A stretch of DNA of 24,508 nt from UHGV virus genome UHGV-0135138. One strand, given 5' to 3'. Below, piece after piece: positions 8,667-14,767 of this stretch. The DNA is from a virus. The position numbers and the translations under genes are program-made. How positions within the stretch are numbered: the first letter of the stretch is position 1; the number at the start of each line of letters is the position of its first letter. The notes beneath the pieces are model-generated. The model was not told where the DNA came from. It was given only the letters and a program-made list of their open reading frames with translations, and did not search any database.

Positions 8667-8716
8667 TGTTAGCGCAATAAATGCGTAGAATTAAAGGAAA
8701 AAGGAGTTTTCCATCA

Positions 8717-9463
8717 ATGTCTAATACCCATGTAAAAAACATCAAACTTGGTGCCTGTAAGGTGTCGTTTGGTGGTGTGGATTTGGGGTACACCAAAGGT
8801 GGTGTTCAGGTTGAAGTTGCCACTGAAACGCTGAAAGTCACCGTCGACCAGCACGGTCAGACAATTATGTCCGAGCTGGTGCAGGGTCGTAACATTACCA
8901 TTACTGCGCCGCTGGCCGAGTCTGTATTGAAAAATATGGTCGATCTGATGCCGGGGTCTACTCTGAGCGAAGACGACAACGCTGTGACCATTACTTCCGC
9001 ACAGGGCGTCAATCTGATCGATGTGGCGAAGGAGCTGGTTCTGACTCCGCAGGACACCACCGACTATGTGTTGACCATCCCAAAAGCGGCAACCGCGGGC
9101 AACTTCACGATGACCTACCAGTCTGATGATATCCGTGTGTTCTCTGTTCAATTCAGCGCATACCCAGATGACGCGGGTGTGTTGGGGAAAATGGGAATGC
9201 ACAAGCCTGTTGAGAGTATCGCGATTAATTCAGCTACCCAAACAGTCAAAGTGGGGGCAAAACTCCAGTTAAGTGCGGCTTTCACTCCAGCGGATGCAAG
9301 TAATAAATCTGGGGTATGGGAGTCTAATGCCCCAGATAAGGCTGTTGTAGATCAAAATGGGGTTGTTTCGGGCAAGGCGGTTGGCTCAGTCGAGATTACT
9401 TTCACCGCCGATGACAGCGGAAAAAAAGCAACTAAATCAATTTCGGTAACAGCAGCAGGCTAA
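8717..9463 (+). CDS. major tail (tube) protein with C-terminal Ig-like (Big_2-type) domain
   Basis: ORF is open from 8681, but the ATG at 8717 follows the strong RBS AAAGGAAAAAGGAG, giving ~248 aa. The C-terminal ~85 aa (IAINSATQTVKVGAKLQLSAAFTPADASNKSGVWESNAPDKAVVDQNGVVSGKAVGSVEITFTADDSGKKATKSISVTAAG) has the same Ig-like pattern as the 5398-6057 product. Followed by a hairpin and the chaperone-tape measure pair. Confidence 0.8.
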   Translation: MSNTHVKNIKLGACKVSFGGVDLGYTKGGVQVEVATETLKVTVDQHGQTIMSELVQGRNITITAPLAESVLKNMVDLMPGSTLSEDDNAVTITSAQGVNLIDVAKELVLTPQDTTDYVLTIPKAATAGNFTMTYQSDDIRVFSVQFSAYPDDAGVLGKMGMHKPVESIAINSATQTVKVGAKLQLSAAFTPADASNKSGVWESNAPDKAVVDQNGVVSGKAVGSVEITFTADDSGKKATKSISVTAAG

Positions 9464-9468
9464 ACGTC

Positions 9469-9494
9469 ATACGAGGCTTAATTAGGCCTCGTAT
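9469..9494 (+). terminator. stem-loop (possible partial terminator / attenuator) after the major tail protein gene
   Basis: ATACGAGGC-ttaattag-GCCTCGTAT, a 9-bp stem followed by CTTGTAT (only a partial U tract). Confidence 0.45.
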
Positions 9495-9517
9495 CTTGTA
9501 TAAAAGGATTTTAACAA

Positions 9518-9835
9518 ATGACCAAATTACTCGATCTCGATTCCATTCTGCCTCCGAAGAAAAGTATCAAATTTGGCGGTCAGGAATATCCCATCGTTGA
9601 AATGACGGTAGGTCTGTTCGTTTCCATCAAGCAGATGGAAGGTAAAGATCTCATGAACATGTCTCCTGTTGAGCAGGTGACAGCTTATGCAGATCTGGTT
9701 CGTAAGGTTATCCCTTCTGTACCTGACGAAGTTCTTGAAAAACTGACTGTTCCGCAACTCCAGCAGATCTTCAACTTCGCTATGGAAGTGATTGATGAAG
9801 AAAACGAAAAAGCGGCTGGCGAAGGGGCAAAGTAA
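9518..9835 (+). CDS. tail assembly chaperone (lambda G-like position)
   Basis: 105-aa acidic protein between the major tail protein and tape measure genes. Its 3' end overlaps an open downstream frame in the -1 register, the conserved chaperone arrangement. Confidence 0.7.
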   Translation: MTKLLDLDSILPPKKSIKFGGQEYPIVEMTVGLFVSIKQMEGKDLMNMSPVEQVTAYADLVRKVIPSVPDEVLEKLTVPQLQQIFNFAMEVIDEENEKAAGEGAK

Positions 9836-10185
9836 TTTCCCGCGATGAATCCGGGACAAGGACCGTCTCAATAGATCTCGGATTCTATTTCAGTCGTGTA
9901 GTTGCTCACTACGCCGTGTCGCCATTAGAGCTATTGAACATCCCTCTCACGATGTTCTGGATGCTCAGCCGTAATATAGACCGTCTGCGTGCGGAAGAAG
10001 ATGTCCGCAACTTACAAGTCGCTCGTGTATCCCAGGCGAATGGCGAGGCTGTAAAGGCGTTCATGGAGGGGTTGCAACTCAGGATTGGAAGACCAGTCGT
10101 TACAGATAAAGTCTACGATCCAAGCCAGGATAAGGCAGACCCTGACGCCAAAGAGCAACTGATGCAAATATTTGGCAGAGGATGA
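9799..10185 (+). CDS. -1 frame extension of the tail assembly chaperone (lambda GT-like frameshift product, putative)
   Basis: The -1 frame is open from 9799 (after TGATGA at 9793-9798) to the stop at 10183-10185 and overlaps the last 12 codons of the chaperone ORF. Candidate slip site is the A5G run at 9807-9812 (GAA AAA G). The only internal start is a GTG at 9916 with no RBS, so independent initiation is unlikely. Confidence 0.5.
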   Translation, partial: RKRKSGWRRGKVISRDESGTRTVSIDLGFYFSRVVAHYAVSPLELLNIPLTMFWMLSRNIDRLRAEEDVRNLQVARVSQANGEAVKAFMEGLQLRIGRPVVTDKVYDPSQDKADPDAKEQLMQIFGRG

Positions 10186-10192
10186 CAAGGGA

Positions 10193-13100
10193 ATGTCACA
10201 AAACGTAGAGTTTATCCTGTCGCTGGAAGACAAACAGTTTACAGCGACAATCGATCGTGCGGGGAAACTGCTTACTCGATTTGGTGAGCAGGTAACAAAG
10301 CCTGCTCAAAAAATCCAAACCTTTGAACGCTCTTTGGGTTCGGTCGCCCGTATCATTGGCGTTCTGGAAAGCAAGCTCGATTCTACGGCAGACAAACTAC
10401 AGGATGTAGCTGCCGGTTTTGAGCTTGCTTCAGATGCTACGCGTAAAATGCGTGGCAACATCACCAGCCTCAATTCTGGTCTTAAAGCCCTGATTGAGCG
10501 CGTCGATACGACAACTTCTTCAGTAGATAAACTCACCGCGTCATTACGTAAAGTGCAATCAGAGCTAAATGATTTCTCTGATTGGGCGACCTATGCAAGC
10601 AAAAGCGCAAGCCGCTTTGGTACGGAGGTAAAAGAAGCCTCTGCGTCCGTGAGTGGTATGAATACGCGCCTTAATACCACGACGAAGCGACTCAGTAATT
10701 GGGGCGTCACAACGAGCCAGGCTGCCGAGGGGCTGAAAAAGGTTCGTGAGCAGATGGACGAAGTTATCGGACGTCAGCAACTGATTAGCAAGCCGGTACG
10801 CGTTCGTACATCTGGAAATGGCGATGGTGGTAGCGGTAGCGGTAGCGGGCAGCGTAGCGGCGCTTCTGGCCATAGAGGTAAAAGTAACGAAGGAGGTATG
10901 TTCTCTGGTCTTCGTGGCAACATTTTCCTGCTTGGCGAGATCGGAGATGCAGCCAGAACGGTTACTGACATCATGTTTGGGTGGCAGAAACCTATTGTTG
11001 AAGCTGCGGCCGAAATGGAACGTATGCGGGTGATGCTTCGAGGGTTGAATAAGGAGAAGTCCAACCCTGGCCAGGCTGCTGCTGATGATATGAAGTACAT
11101 CGTAGACATGGCTCAAAATGCGCCGTTCGCGATGCAGGCGTTAACAGACTCCTTCGTGAAGTTTCGTTCTGCTGGCTTAGATCCAACCGATGGTTCTCTA
11201 AAGGCGCTGGTGGACTCCGTTGCTCGTTTTGGTGGGGATAGCGAACTTCTGAAGCGTGCATCCATTGCTATTCAGCAAATGTCCGGTAAGGGCGTCGTGT
11301 CAATGGAAGAGCTACGTCAGCAATTAGGTGAGGCGATTCCGACAGCAATGAACGCAATGGCCAAGGCTGCTGGTCTGACAATGGGCGAGTTAACTAAAGC
11401 TGTAGCATCTGGAACGGTAGAAGCCAAAAACGCACTGGCACTTATGTTCAAAGAGTTGAAGATGCAGAACGAGGGAGCTGCGTCCGAAATGATGAACACA
11501 TTTACCGGTACGTTGGCGCAAATGAAGACAGCCTTTACGCTGTTCGCGGACAAAGTAGGCCAGACTGGTTATTTGTCTTCTTTAAGAGAGGGAATGAAAG
11601 AACTCACCTCCCTGATGAATAGCGCAGGGGGTACATCTTTTGCTCACTCGTTGGGAAGTGGATTGACAACGGCTGTGGATGGCTTGCGTGACCTGGCGAA
11701 ATGGCTGATTAAAAACCAGGAGCTTGTTGTCACTTTCGGCAAAGCCGTCGCTGTAACGATGGCCTTCAGACTCCTCAAATCGGGGATTTCTGGTGTCATC
11801 GGCACTGCTAATAGCATGATCAGCACCTTTGCTACGGTATCCACCACAATACAGGGGACATTTGATCTTGCGACGACAGCCGTTAAACGCTTCAATCGAG
11901 CCTCGCGCATGGGACTATCTACCATCCCAGCATTGATTTTTGCTATTCGCAATGCATTTGCTGGCTTGACTGCGTTCATGGCTGCAAACCCTATAGGATT
12001 CTTCTTTACTGCTGCGGTAACGGCGGTTTCGACGCTGATCTGGCACATGAGCAGTCTGAGGAAGAAAGTCGAAGACGTTGTAAACAAAGTCAGAGAAATC
12101 CCTGAAGCGATGACGCAGGCAGATCGCGCGATACTGGAAAGCGAACTGAGCAAGAAAGATCGAGAGATCGCCAGACTGGAAAAAGAAGTCGAGACTGGCA
12201 AAACCTTGCATTTTTCAGCATACACGGGACCGTACGAAGTTGGTGTCGATGTTGACGACAGCAAAAAGAAACTGGAAAAAACGCGAAAAGAAAGAGAGGA
12301 AGTCGCCAAAGCTCTTGATGGCGGCATAGCCGAAACCACCAAACAAAGCATTACTAAGAAATATAGAGAGGATATTGATGCGGTCAACCAGAAAGGGAAT
12401 GCATTAATAGCCTCACTCGCCAAAGAGATAGAAAGACTCACCAAAAGCAATGAGAAAATTGCCGCGCGGTCGGACTTGTCCGACCACGAAAAAAGCAAAT
12501 TAAGGGCAGAAAACAACGCAGAACTTGGACGTTTGTACGCCCAGGCCGACGAGCAAAAACTCAAAGGGTATAAAGCTCGTTATGAGAAGGGGCTTGGTGA
12601 ACTCGCCACATACTCAGAGGCGCTCAAAAAGGCCCAAGAGTCGAACGATATGCAGGGGCAAAAAGAAGCCCAGACAAAGATAGACTCCACCACCGAGGCT
12701 TTGAAGATTGTAAAAGAGGGGATGGAGAACCTTGAAATCAGTCTTAGCGTGAAAGCTGGGGACGGCTTGGTTTCTATTAATGGCGGTAAAATTGGTGAGT
12801 TTTCAAGCACACCAGTTGATGCTAATTCCAAAACTATGACTGGTTTTTGGAAACAGCAGATGGACTCTAAAAGGTATCAAAGAGTCAATCTCGATGGTTC
12901 CGCATTATACGACTTACAAGGTCAACCTGTTGTTGGGCCTCGACAACTCAAGGAGCAATTAAGACAGAAGAAAATTTACGGTGATGTGAAATTAGAGCAG
13001 TTGTCAGAAAATGACCGCATCGCAGTAATTAAGACTCTGACAAAAGCTCGTGAACTTGATGCTGAAGCAGCGGATAAGGCAGCAAACCGTACCGCAAAAG

Positions 13101-14767
13101 CAGCCGAGAGAGCAGCCAAGAAAGAACAGGCAGCGCAACAGAAACTGGCAGCCGGATACCAGAAGGCTCTGGACAAAGCCGATCAGCTTATGGGGCAAAT
13201 GGGGGAAAGCTCTAAGGCTACGGTATCGTTTGATCAGTCTCTTCGCGATACAACGAAATCGCTGACAGATTTGGCTAATGCGGTTCCTAACGAGTTCATC
13301 ACTCAAGAGATGATCGACAAGGCGAAAAAACGTCTTGAAGACCTCAAAAATGCGACACCTGAATATCGCGAGATGTTTAATCGCCGCAATGTTGAGCAGA
13401 TGATCTCCACTTGGGCACCGGAGGCGGATTCCATTATTAGTGCTGGCTATACGCCGTCTCGTGAAGAGAAAGTTGCTGATTTCGAAGACACCTACAACCG
13501 TAATCTTAAAGCATTGATTGATTTACGGAAAGCTGCGATTGAGTCAGGCACAGCATCACAAAGCCAGATTGAGTTGTTCGGTAAAAAGATCAATCAACTT
13601 ATTGCTGCTGGCAATACCGCGCTTATTAAAGAGACGGGGACTGCGACGCAGAAGTTGGCACTGGAATACGAAAACCTGGCAGAGCAGATCGAAAGCACCT
13701 GGACGGATTTGTTTAGTGGCTTAACTGATGTCCTGACTGATTTCGTTATTAACGGGAAGATGAGCTTCTCCAGCCTGTCTCAGTCCATTTTGAAAGATAT
13801 CACCAATATGGTCGTGAAGTCGCAGATCACGCTACCTCTGATGAACATGTTGGGGATGGGAACCACCGCAGCTGGTAGTTCGCAGAGTGGTAATTTGCTG
13901 ACCGGGGTTGCTTCCGCCGTTGCCAATCAAGGGGTACGAATGGGCAACACTGTTAATGGTGACAAGTCGGTAGGAGAAGCCACGAAGGAGACGTCCAGTT
14001 CGGTAACTGGATTGGGGCAAACGACACAGCAGACCACCAGCGCAATTGGTACTGCAACAAATGCGATTGGTAGCTGGGTATCAGGGCTATTTGATAGCAC
14101 TGAAGCCAAAGATACCGAGACAAAAGCCGTGAAGGACTCCATCTTCTCGATGCAGAACCTCAGCTCTGTTACCGGAGCGCTATCTGCCGCTTTTGCAATG
14201 CTTGGGGCTAACGCTTCCGGCTCTGGTAATAAGTGGTTGAATTTTGGAGCAACGGTTGCAACTGGCCTTGTTTCCGTCTGGGCTGGTGGTGGTTTTGATA
14301 AACTACTGTCAAGCTCTTCGAGAACAACTTCCGGCTTTAATAATCTGACCGGCCCAGCTGCTGACGGCACGAATGGCATCCCTGCAATTCCGAAGTTCGC
14401 AAATGGTGGCATATTCGGAAAAGACGGTGTGATTCCGCTTCGAGCGTATCAGAAAGGTGGTATTGCCAACTCTCCCCAATTGGCGTTGTTTGGAGAAGGT
14501 TCTATGAATGAGGCGTATGTTCCATTGCCTGATGGTCGAACGATCCCCGTAACGCTCAGTACCGATGGTATGAGTGGAAACGGAAACGTTCTTTCTCCGG
14601 TATCAATTGAGATCAACGTCCATAGTGACGGCAGCACAACTGAATCCGGTGATAAAGAAAGCATATGGAACAATGCCGCTCAACGGGTGAAAGCTGTCGT
14701 GCTTGAGACTATCGCTCAAGAGAAACGCCCTGGCGGATCACTCAATCCAAACACTCAACGTAACTAA
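10193..14767 (+). CDS. tail tape measure protein
   Basis: Very long ORF (open from TTG 10172; first ATG at 10193, ~1525 aa) directly after the chaperone pair. Extended helical/coiled-coil segments, internal hydrophobic stretches (GLSTIPALIFAIRNAFAGLTAFMAANPIGFFFTAAVTAVSTLIW), a Gly/Ser-rich tract, and a Gly-rich C-terminal region of the kind seen in lambda H (recalled). Confidence 0.9.
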   Translation: MSQNVEFILSLEDKQFTATIDRAGKLLTRFGEQVTKPAQKIQTFERSLGSVARIIGVLESKLDSTADKLQDVAAGFELASDATRKMRGNITSLNSGLKALIERVDTTTSSVDKLTASLRKVQSELNDFSDWATYASKSASRFGTEVKEASASVSGMNTRLNTTTKRLSNWGVTTSQAAEGLKKVREQMDEVIGRQQLISKPVRVRTSGNGDGGSGSGSGQRSGASGHRGKSNEGGMFSGLRGNIFLLGEIGDAARTVTDIMFGWQKPIVEAAAEMERMRVMLRGLNKEKSNPGQAAADDMKYIVDMAQNAPFAMQALTDSFVKFRSAGLDPTDGSLKALVDSVARFGGDSELLKRASIAIQQMSGKGVVSMEELRQQLGEAIPTAMNAMAKAAGLTMGELTKAVASGTVEAKNALALMFKELKMQNEGAASEMMNTFTGTLAQMKTAFTLFADKVGQTGYLSSLREGMKELTSLMNSAGGTSFAHSLGSGLTTAVDGLRDLAKWLIKNQELVVTFGKAVAVTMAFRLLKSGISGVIGTANSMISTFATVSTTIQGTFDLATTAVKRFNRASRMGLSTIPALIFAIRNAFAGLTAFMAANPIGFFFTAAVTAVSTLIWHMSSLRKKVEDVVNKVREIPEAMTQADRAILESELSKKDREIARLEKEVETGKTLHFSAYTGPYEVGVDVDDSKKKLEKTRKEREEVAKALDGGIAETTKQSITKKYREDIDAVNQKGNALIASLAKEIERLTKSNEKIAARSDLSDHEKSKLRAENNAELGRLYAQADEQKLKGYKARYEKGLGELATYSEALKKAQESNDMQGQKEAQTKIDSTTEALKIVKEGMENLEISLSVKAGDGLVSINGGKIGEFSSTPVDANSKTMTGFWKQQMDSKRYQRVNLDGSALYDLQGQPVVGPRQLKEQLRQKKIYGDVKLEQLSENDRIAVIKTLTKARELDAEAADKAANRTAKAAERAAKKEQAAQQKLAAGYQKALDKADQLMGQMGESSKATVSFDQSLRDTTKSLTDLANAVPNEFITQEMIDKAKKRLEDLKNATPEYREMFNRRNVEQMISTWAPEADSIISAGYTPSREEKVADFEDTYNRNLKALIDLRKAAIESGTASQSQIELFGKKINQLIAAGNTALIKETGTATQKLALEYENLAEQIESTWTDLFSGLTDVLTDFVINGKMSFSSLSQSILKDITNMVVKSQITLPLMNMLGMGTTAAGSSQSGNLLTGVASAVANQGVRMGNTVNGDKSVGEATKETSSSVTGLGQTTQQTTSAIGTATNAIGSWVSGLFDSTEAKDTETKAVKDSIFSMQNLSSVTGALSAAFAMLGANASGSGNKWLNFGATVATGLVSVWAGGGFDKLLSSSSRTTSGFNNLTGPAADGTNGIPAIPKFANGGIFGKDGVIPLRAYQKGGIANSPQLALFGEGSMNEAYVPLPDGRTIPVTLSTDGMSGNGNVLSPVSIEINVHSDGSTTESGDKESIWNNAAQRVKAVVLETIAQEKRPGGSLNPNTQRN

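Follow-up and report, generated by a model that had tools for sequence, protein, structure and literature searches.

The 24,508-nt viral DNA stretch UHGV-0135138, referred to here as the window, carries two overlapping tail genes, G and T, and it is quite likely that their expression is coupled by a programmed −1 ribosomal frameshift, G being made both alone and as a G-T fusion (GT), with the slip occurring at an A_AAG tetramer that directly adjoins the G stop codon. The first-pass annotation had already read the locus as a G/GT pair expressed by programmed −1 frameshifting at a non-canonical site, so termed because no heptamer is present, and had placed the slip at GAAAAAG (9806-9812). The G/GT part of that reading is upheld by the comparisons given below, whereas the slip site had to be relocated.

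The G/T locus and its reading frames

Nucleotide comparison found the window region to be 97.5% identical to Escherichia phage Cyrano and 86-94% identical to PhiR41_1, Salmonella phage SSU5 and Klebsiella phage-plasmids, and 785 PLSDB plasmids matched the window, including Y. pestis pMT1 and S. Typhi pHCM2. Judged by these matches, the window is an SSU5-like phage-plasmid (siphovirus), with Cyrano, SSU5, pMT1 and pHCM2 as relatives. Genes follow one another as tail terminator, Ig-domain major tail protein, G, T and tape measure, with G and T flanked by two synteny anchors, the major tail protein and the tape measure protein:

8681..9463, plus strand: major tail protein with a C-terminal Big_2 Ig-like domain (Pfam PF02368, E 4e-19; phrog_1280), the upstream synteny anchor
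9518..9835, plus strand: gene G, predicted tail assembly chaperone of 105 aa, frame 2 (ORF, synteny, phrog_893)
9832..10185, plus strand: T segment in frame 1 (the −1 frame), 117 codons plus TGA (frames, codon constraint, phrog_1131)
10193..14767, plus strand: tape measure protein of 1,524 aa (Pfam TMP_3 and Tape_meas_lam_C; phrog_1292), the downstream synteny anchor

Three-frame translation placed G in frame 2 from ATG 9518 to TAA 9833-9835, encoding 105 aa with the C-terminal end EENEKAAGEGAK. The −1 frame (frame 1) is closed by stops at 9793-9795 and at 9796-9798 and then stays open from 9799 to TGA 10183-10185, in agreement with the earlier claim that both frames are open over 9799-9832. 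The tape measure gene was taken to start at ATG 10193, where the PHROG match begins (residue 8 of the ORF opened by TTG 10172) and which agrees with the annotation of relatives. With this start, the −1 ORF ends 7 nt before the tape measure gene, bearing out the first-pass statement that the frame closes just ahead of it. A mechanical ORF list puts the tape measure start at TTG 10172, overlapping the end of T; homology favours ATG 10193, which has AAGGGA upstream. In the public records examined, covering SSU5-like phages and plasmids including pMT1 and pHCM2, G and T are two separate hypothetical proteins.

A −1 frame free of stops over 117 codons has a chance probability of approximately (61/64)^117, about 0.004. 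For comparison, 98 SSU5-like loci were collected, which represent 68 distinct G+T sequences. G followed by a −1-frame T was found in all 98 related loci with readable G and T and also in distant homologues, and G was 105 aa long with a terminal Lys in 98/98 SSU5-like loci. These comparisons bear on the alternative of no recoding, in which the −1 ORF would be open by chance, would be a gene in decay or would result from a sequencing error that split one gene. The frame relation and the ORF lengths are constant in the 98 loci, which cover many genera and include isolated phages, and the T protein is conserved across Rhizobium, Pseudomonas and Stenotrophomonas phages; on such sequence conservation this alternative is effectively refuted, and we give it next to no credence. 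A +1 shift was also rejected, because the +1 frame closes at 9846.

The length of the overlap varies with a synonymous polymorphism at G codon 101 (window 9818-9823), which is GGC in 36/68 and GGT in 30/68 distinct sequences. Where GGT GAA stands in place of GGC GAA, a −1-frame TGA arises (9820-9822 equivalent), and the overlap is 10 nt (A GGG GCA AAG) instead of 34 nt. The relatives with GGT GAA comprise SSU5, pMT1, pHCM2 and Cronobacter, Enterobacter and Citrobacter plasmids.

Several observations concern the surroundings of the overlap. The G and T proteins (WP_000163862.1 and WP_000952684.1) do not differ between pMT1 (L003), pHCM2 (L008) and Enterobacter and Citrobacter plasmids (L009 and L014), in which A_AAG_TAA is also intact, an indication that the tail module has either spread recently or remained under selection. 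Megablast similarity to all phage relatives begins only at about 9485-9500 and leaves the 3′ end of the major tail protein gene, encoding Big_2, unmatched, hinting that the Big_2 decoration domain of the major tail protein is mosaic. A 9-bp inverted repeat (9469-9494; ATACGAGGC / GCCTCGTAT, 8-nt loop) lies between the stop codon of the major tail protein gene and the ribosome-binding site of G; it was not called by the terminator scan because it lacks a T-run, and it may act as a leaky terminator or stabilise the mRNA as a hairpin, tuning expression of the major tail protein versus the downstream genes. The window contains no tRNA gene, and Rfam gave no match in the window or around the slip site.

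The G protein matches phrog_893 and the T protein phrog_1131. A Pfam scan of G and T returned no chaperone family and no similarity to the lambda G or T families, and an exhaustive profile search with G collected 476 representative relatives of about 100-130 aa. The AF2 model of G built on these relatives (pLDDT 84) combines a short N-terminal beta-hairpin with a helical bundle and an acidic tail that is disordered. Among BFVD entries it matches best one that carries the name "Tail assembly chaperone" (E 4.5e-5, TM 0.70), a dozen more chaperones are among the top 50 matches, and it weakly resembles the HK97 chaperone 2ob9. The AF2 model of T, built from a shallow alignment, was poor (pLDDT 64). 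Given the fold resemblance and the lack of a Pfam match, the identification of G as a tail assembly chaperone is based mainly on its position and recoding architecture, with which the fold evidence is consistent.

Location of the proposed slip site

Three elements at the 3′ end of G were considered in locating the slip:

9806..9812, plus strand: GAAAAAG, the candidate of the first-pass annotation, containing the A_AAA tetramer 9808-9811; not the conserved site
9829..9832, plus strand: A_AAG, the proposed −1 slip site and sole Z_ZZN motif in the overlap of all 68 distinct sequences
9833..9835, plus strand: TAA stop codon of G directly 3′ of the slip codon, a possible "shifty stop" component with a putative pausing role; all SSU5-like loci and the divergent tetramer lineages have TAA or TAG directly after A_AAG

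A classical X_XXY_YYZ heptamer, which had been reported missing from the overlap, was indeed present in neither the window nor any of the 68 distinct relatives. In the G frame, positions 9827-9832 read GCA AAG, and A_AAG followed by TAA or TAG was found in 68/68 distinct relatives. Of the codons in the 10-nt overlap, the last, A_AAG, alone has a tRNA able to re-pair in the −1 frame. Codons 104 and 105 never vary at the third position, a property of only 10 of the 105 G codons, three of which are ATG, and the third-position A of codon 104 is retained even where Ala is replaced by Val (GCA to GTA). This conservation pattern indicates that the conserved slip site is very probably the A_AAG adjoining the stop codon, not the A-run.

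The A-run, by comparison, is read GAA AAA GCG in the G frame. A −1 shift there would move the Lys-tRNA from AAA 9809-9811 to AAA 9808-9810 and yield the product ...EENEK-SGWRRGK-VISR.... From there the ribosome would run on into T in the window and in 36/68 distinct relatives, where the −1 frame is open from 9799, and A_AAA belongs to the six stimulator-responsive tetramers in E. coli, of which it is the weakest (PMC4066793). In 30/68 relatives, however, the −1-frame TGA severs the run from T, and in three distinct sequences the run is missing altogether, codon 98 being GCC. Furthermore, the divergent tetramer lineages either lack an equivalent run or have overlaps of only 10-19 nt, and the candidate stem-loop that begins at 9841 would be 29 nt away from the run. 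A programmed shift at the A-run is on these grounds very improbable, and A_AAA 9808-9811 would at best make a small contribution restricted to certain lineages, the window's own among them.

The A_AAG tetramer abutting a stop codon was also found outside the close relatives of the window. NNA_AAG_stop with a −1-frame T ORF recurs in the following lineages, the G identity being about 26-48% if L104 is excluded:

L104, SSU5-like but divergent: GTA AAG TAG, overlap 34 nt
L113, G identity to the window 48%: GCA AAG TAA, overlap 10 nt
L114-116, G identity to the window 38%: GCA AAG TAG, overlap 106 nt
L117, G identity to the window about 27%: ACA AAG TAA, overlap 46 nt
L118, G identity to the window about 26-31%: GTA AAG TAA, overlap 19 nt
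L119, G identity to the window about 26-31%: TCA AAG TAG, overlap 10 nt

Distant homologues, including eight phage genomes of other hosts, have the same layout of major tail protein, G, −1-frame T and tape measure, and carry canonical heptamers in the G frame:

G_GGA_AAG: V1VFA-S and B1VFA
C_CCA_AAG: ZY21 and nickie
G_GGA_AAC: RHph_Y2_11, RHEph10, RHph_N1_10 and L102 (adjoining TGA, 1500-1509)
A_AAA_AAA: ANB28
A_AAA_AAG: L103 (adjoining TAA, 1373-1382) and L120

Together with the coding constraint on the −1 frame up to the G stop codon and the absence of a conserved start for T, both documented in the next section, these similarly arranged homologues with canonical heptamers strongly support the G/GT reading put forward in the first-pass annotation. 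Its proposed site, in contrast, did not survive the loss of the A-run, or of its connection with T, among the relatives.

The wider G family was sampled as 135 full-length representatives (P0032-P0176) of clusters at ≤50% identity. A terminal Lys was present in 48/135 (36%), as against 8% Lys in the background. A heptamer-compatible dipeptide (GK, KK, GN, PK or KN) was located at the exact C-terminus in 52/135 and one residue earlier in 35/135, together approximately 65%. From these C-terminal dipeptides and the DNA of L102 and L103, a slip site adjoining the stop codon seems typical of the G chaperone family, and the SSU5 group looks like a heptamer design reduced to a tetramer. A search for the representatives P0034, P0040 and P0032 in viral and metagenome contigs gave no match, and DNA was obtained via the encoding contigs; a genome-contig scan returned close relatives only.

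T as the C-terminal part of a predicted fusion

The sequence between the G stop codon and the possible starts of T was examined for coding constraint. Over the 30 codons before GTG 9916 (9832-9915), variable sites by codon position numbered 13/2/22, and by this measure selection acts on the −1-frame protein all the way back to the G stop codon. Among the 68 distinct sequences, no start codon is conserved before ATG 9961, which is itself invariant; GTG 9916 is present in 44/68 and ATG 9952 in 65/68. The gene callers disagreed on T, with at least eight lengths (74-131 aa) and five start sites among their predictions. A tblastn search with the T segment identified homologues in Rhizobium, Pseudomonas and Stenotrophomonas phages, with the alignment beginning at T residue 3, and the joint alignment of T contains six invariant residues, two of which, D15 and F18 (IDxGF motif, 9874-9885), precede any start that T could use in the window. 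Scanning of 9380-10260 detected no terminators and a single promoter match, at the T/tape-measure junction (10182-10211), which scored at shuffle level; no promoter-like or terminator-like site was found between G and T. T is thus predicted to be translated, probably, only as the C-terminal part of a 222-aa GT fusion.

Alternatively, T could be made separately, with no fusion, either from its own start (GTG 9916, ATG 9952 or ATG 9961) or by reinitiation at AUU 9835. Separate synthesis would fit all public annotations, in which T is called as a separate ORF, and would fit the invariance of ATG 9961. The annotated start, however, varies from record to record, the two upstream candidates are not retained in all sequences, and what lies 5′ of the starts shows codon-periodic purifying selection and contains family-invariant residues. 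In the reinitiation version, AUU 9835 would overlap the stop codon (UA-AUU) and GGGG 9824-9827 would serve as a Shine-Dalgarno sequence, and in the window GGGG does lie 7 nt ahead of AUU 9835. Against it, the codon at 9835 is ATT, ATA or ATC (synonymous Ile) or GTT, and GAA in L104, and GGGG is replaced by GAA, GAG or GAC in 13/68. The canonical slippery heptamers at the equivalent place in distant homologues also speak against a start of its own, and we consider separate synthesis of T improbable.

The frame could also be shifted by RNA polymerase slippage (transcriptional realignment) and not by the ribosome. Transcriptional slippage needs long homopolymer runs, far above A5; the conserved 10-nt overlap holds only AAA, and the longest run in the window is A5. 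Phage and IS genes use this route at times (PMC5009743), but for the G/T locus it is exceedingly unlikely, and ribosomal slippage at A_AAG remains the preferred reading.

Proposed mechanism, stimulators and comparison with known systems

The reading frames, the conservation of A_AAG with its stop codon, the coding constraint on the −1 frame, the absence of a conserved start and the heptamers of the homologues are all read directly from the sequences and their alignments; the slippage itself, its efficiency, the acting stimulator and the chaperone roles are inferred, as follows. Most ribosomes would translate G (9518-9832) and terminate at TAA 9833, giving the 105-aa G protein. A small fraction would slip back by one nucleotide on the last sense codon with the single enterobacterial Lys-tRNA (anticodon UUU), which would un-pair from AAG 9830-9832 and re-pair with AAA 9829-9831. 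The next codon would then be GTA 9832-9834, and the −1 frame would be read from GTA to GGA 10180-10182 and stop at TGA 10183. This would yield a GT fusion of 222 aa, joined at ...AAGEGAK-VISRDESG.... If the lambda proteins are a guide, the tape measure protein would be coated by G together with the G portion of GT, and recruitment of the major tail protein would fall to the T portion.

The G:GT ratio of lambda is approximately 30:1, the same order as a frameshift of 5.6%. The latter value was reached in E. coli by A_AAG with a 3′ pseudoknot, A_AAG being by far the best of the 16 −1 tetramers (PMC4066793). Tetramers without a stimulator stay near background in E. coli (0.147% versus 0.112%; PMC4066793), so the model depends on stimulators, which are here predicted. 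E. coli has a single Lys-tRNA, which pairs weakly with AAG, and A_AAG is the prototype −1 tetramer (PMC5009743). In the window, slippage is probably stimulated by a stem-loop at 9841-9898 or by the stop codon, which would occupy the A site once translocation is complete, a case of one-tRNA P-site slippage at a "shifty stop"; the two may also act together, and either route would lead to the same protein.

The stem-loop is located shortly downstream of the slip site:

9841..9898, plus strand: candidate stem-loop starting 8 nt after AAG (folds; comparative support)

Its outer stem would pair CGCGAU (9841-9846) with GUCGUG (9893-9898), and its inner stem GAAUCCGG (9847-9854) with UCGGAUUC (9878-9885). 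The inner stem was 100% paired in 16 distinct SSU5-group sequences, with one compensatory change and a weak shuffle control (28/500); all single inner-stem changes fall at third codon positions, and coding constraint could therefore explain them. In 11 tetramer lineages, the 66 nt after the stop codon had a mean z of −2.2 versus −0.5 in 55 control windows (Mann-Whitney p 7e-5 and paired Wilcoxon p 0.001, for lineages that are not independent), and in most tetramer lineages the stem-loop begins 8 nt after AAG. The window's own stem-loop had a z of −1.1, which is not significant. L117-L119 have a different stem sequence at the equivalent place, CCGACA...UGUCGG; in these Logan contigs z was down to −4.4 with a 66-nt window and −5.1 with a 60-nt window, and their tape measure proteins are about 2,000 aa long. 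Taken together, the folding and comparative data point to the stem-loop 9841-9898 as a likely, though putative, stimulator, for which the support is comparative and, in the window itself, weak.

The Shine-Dalgarno-like GGGG (9824-9827) was rejected as a −1 stimulator, since at 2 nt upstream it is too close to the site and, with GAA, GAG or GAC in its place in the 13 relatives mentioned above, it is not conserved. A conserved upstream Shine-Dalgarno-like stimulator 10-14 nt 5′ of the site was not found either, the window having GGGG alone, 2 nt upstream.

As to the stop codon, UAA followed by U is an efficient termination context in E. coli, which counts against a long pause at the G stop. One-tRNA P-site slippage occurs when the A site fills slowly (PMC6771820), and the shifty-stop concept has been described (PMC3082878). 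Possibly, though we hold it to be doubtful, the recoding signal of a whole family of siphovirus tail chaperones, with a bare A_AAG tetramer or a heptamer placed up against the end of G, includes the stop codon as an integral component. Competition between release factor and −1 P-site slippage would in that case determine the G:GT ratio, which would respond to host termination capacity or growth state, making the arrangement a family-wide −1 "shifty stop" for assembly stoichiometry.

The G/GT system itself is already known, and so is the signal class, a Z_ZZN tetramer with 3′ structure, possibly aided by the stop. What is very probably new is the predicted, unannotated GT fusion in SSU5-like phage-plasmids; also new is the putative minimal tetramer adjoining the stop codon in these elements, a design that appears to recur in several deep branches of one chaperone family. 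No paper linking SSU5 with frameshifting was found in the literature searched, the coverage of which does not extend to Xu et al. 2004. In annotation, a 222-aa GT fusion should replace the separate hypothetical proteins with arbitrary T starts. Motif-based predictors miss such sites, as the backward-motif list of PRFect does not include a bare Z_ZZN, and the SSU5-like chaperone family provides a natural test set for tetramer-plus-stop −1 signals. Moreover, the retention of this recoding signal, intact and conserved, speaks for continuing functional selection on the tail genes of these phage-plasmids.

In lambda, GT is produced by −1 programmed frameshifting at G_GGA_AAG (Levin et al. 1993; Xu, Hendrix and Duda 2004, 2013, 2014, summarised in PMC5009743). 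As in lambda, the interval from the major tail protein gene to the tape measure gene holds two ORFs, the second of them read in the −1 frame and lacking its own start, and the shift would take place close to the 3′ end of G, with G alone and a G-T fusion as expected products; distant homologues of the window's T even use G_GGA_AAG. Unlike the lambda site, the SSU5-like site is a tetramer, A_AAG, with no X_XXY_YYZ heptamer, which lowers its typicality but not its membership of a class that admits sites other than heptamers, and its slip codon is the last sense codon, adjoining the stop. The mean distance from slip site to stop given with PRFect is 26 nt in the SEA-PHAGES set and 36 nt in the Xu set. 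The window's G and T also differ from the lambda proteins in having no Pfam similarity to the lambda G or T families.

Z_ZZN tetramers are used at G_CGA_AAG in IS1222, and A_CGA_AAG occurs in B. subtilis cdd (PMC5009743); −1 signals of this class include those of IS3-family elements (PMC5009743; PMC4066793). The predicted signal of the window resembles them in that A_AAG would be decoded by a single Lys-tRNA with a P-site codon (GCA or GTA) that is unable to re-pair, and in its dependence on a stimulator, a stem-loop being predicted a few nucleotides downstream; in the class, a stimulatory 3′ RNA structure is expected at about 5-9 nt. It differs from them in its context, which is a phage tail chaperone and not a transposase, and in the 0-frame stop codon directly after the tetramer. 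Unlike some tetramer members (dnaX and cdd), the window has no conserved upstream Shine-Dalgarno-like stimulator, which is not a class-wide requirement.

Shifty-stop frameshifting was reportedly described by Weiss et al. in 1987. The phage examples shift +1 at CCC_UGA or CCC_UAA in Listeria phages, Q54 and SPP1 (PMC3082878). In common with these, all tetramer lineages have a re-pairing-prone P-site tRNA adjoining a stop codon in the A site (AAG TAA or AAG TAG); in contrast to them, the direction would be −1 instead of +1, and the contribution of the stop codon in the window is putative. Set beside these three systems, the predicted GT of SSU5-like phage-plasmids is a fairly ordinary member of a well-known recoding system.
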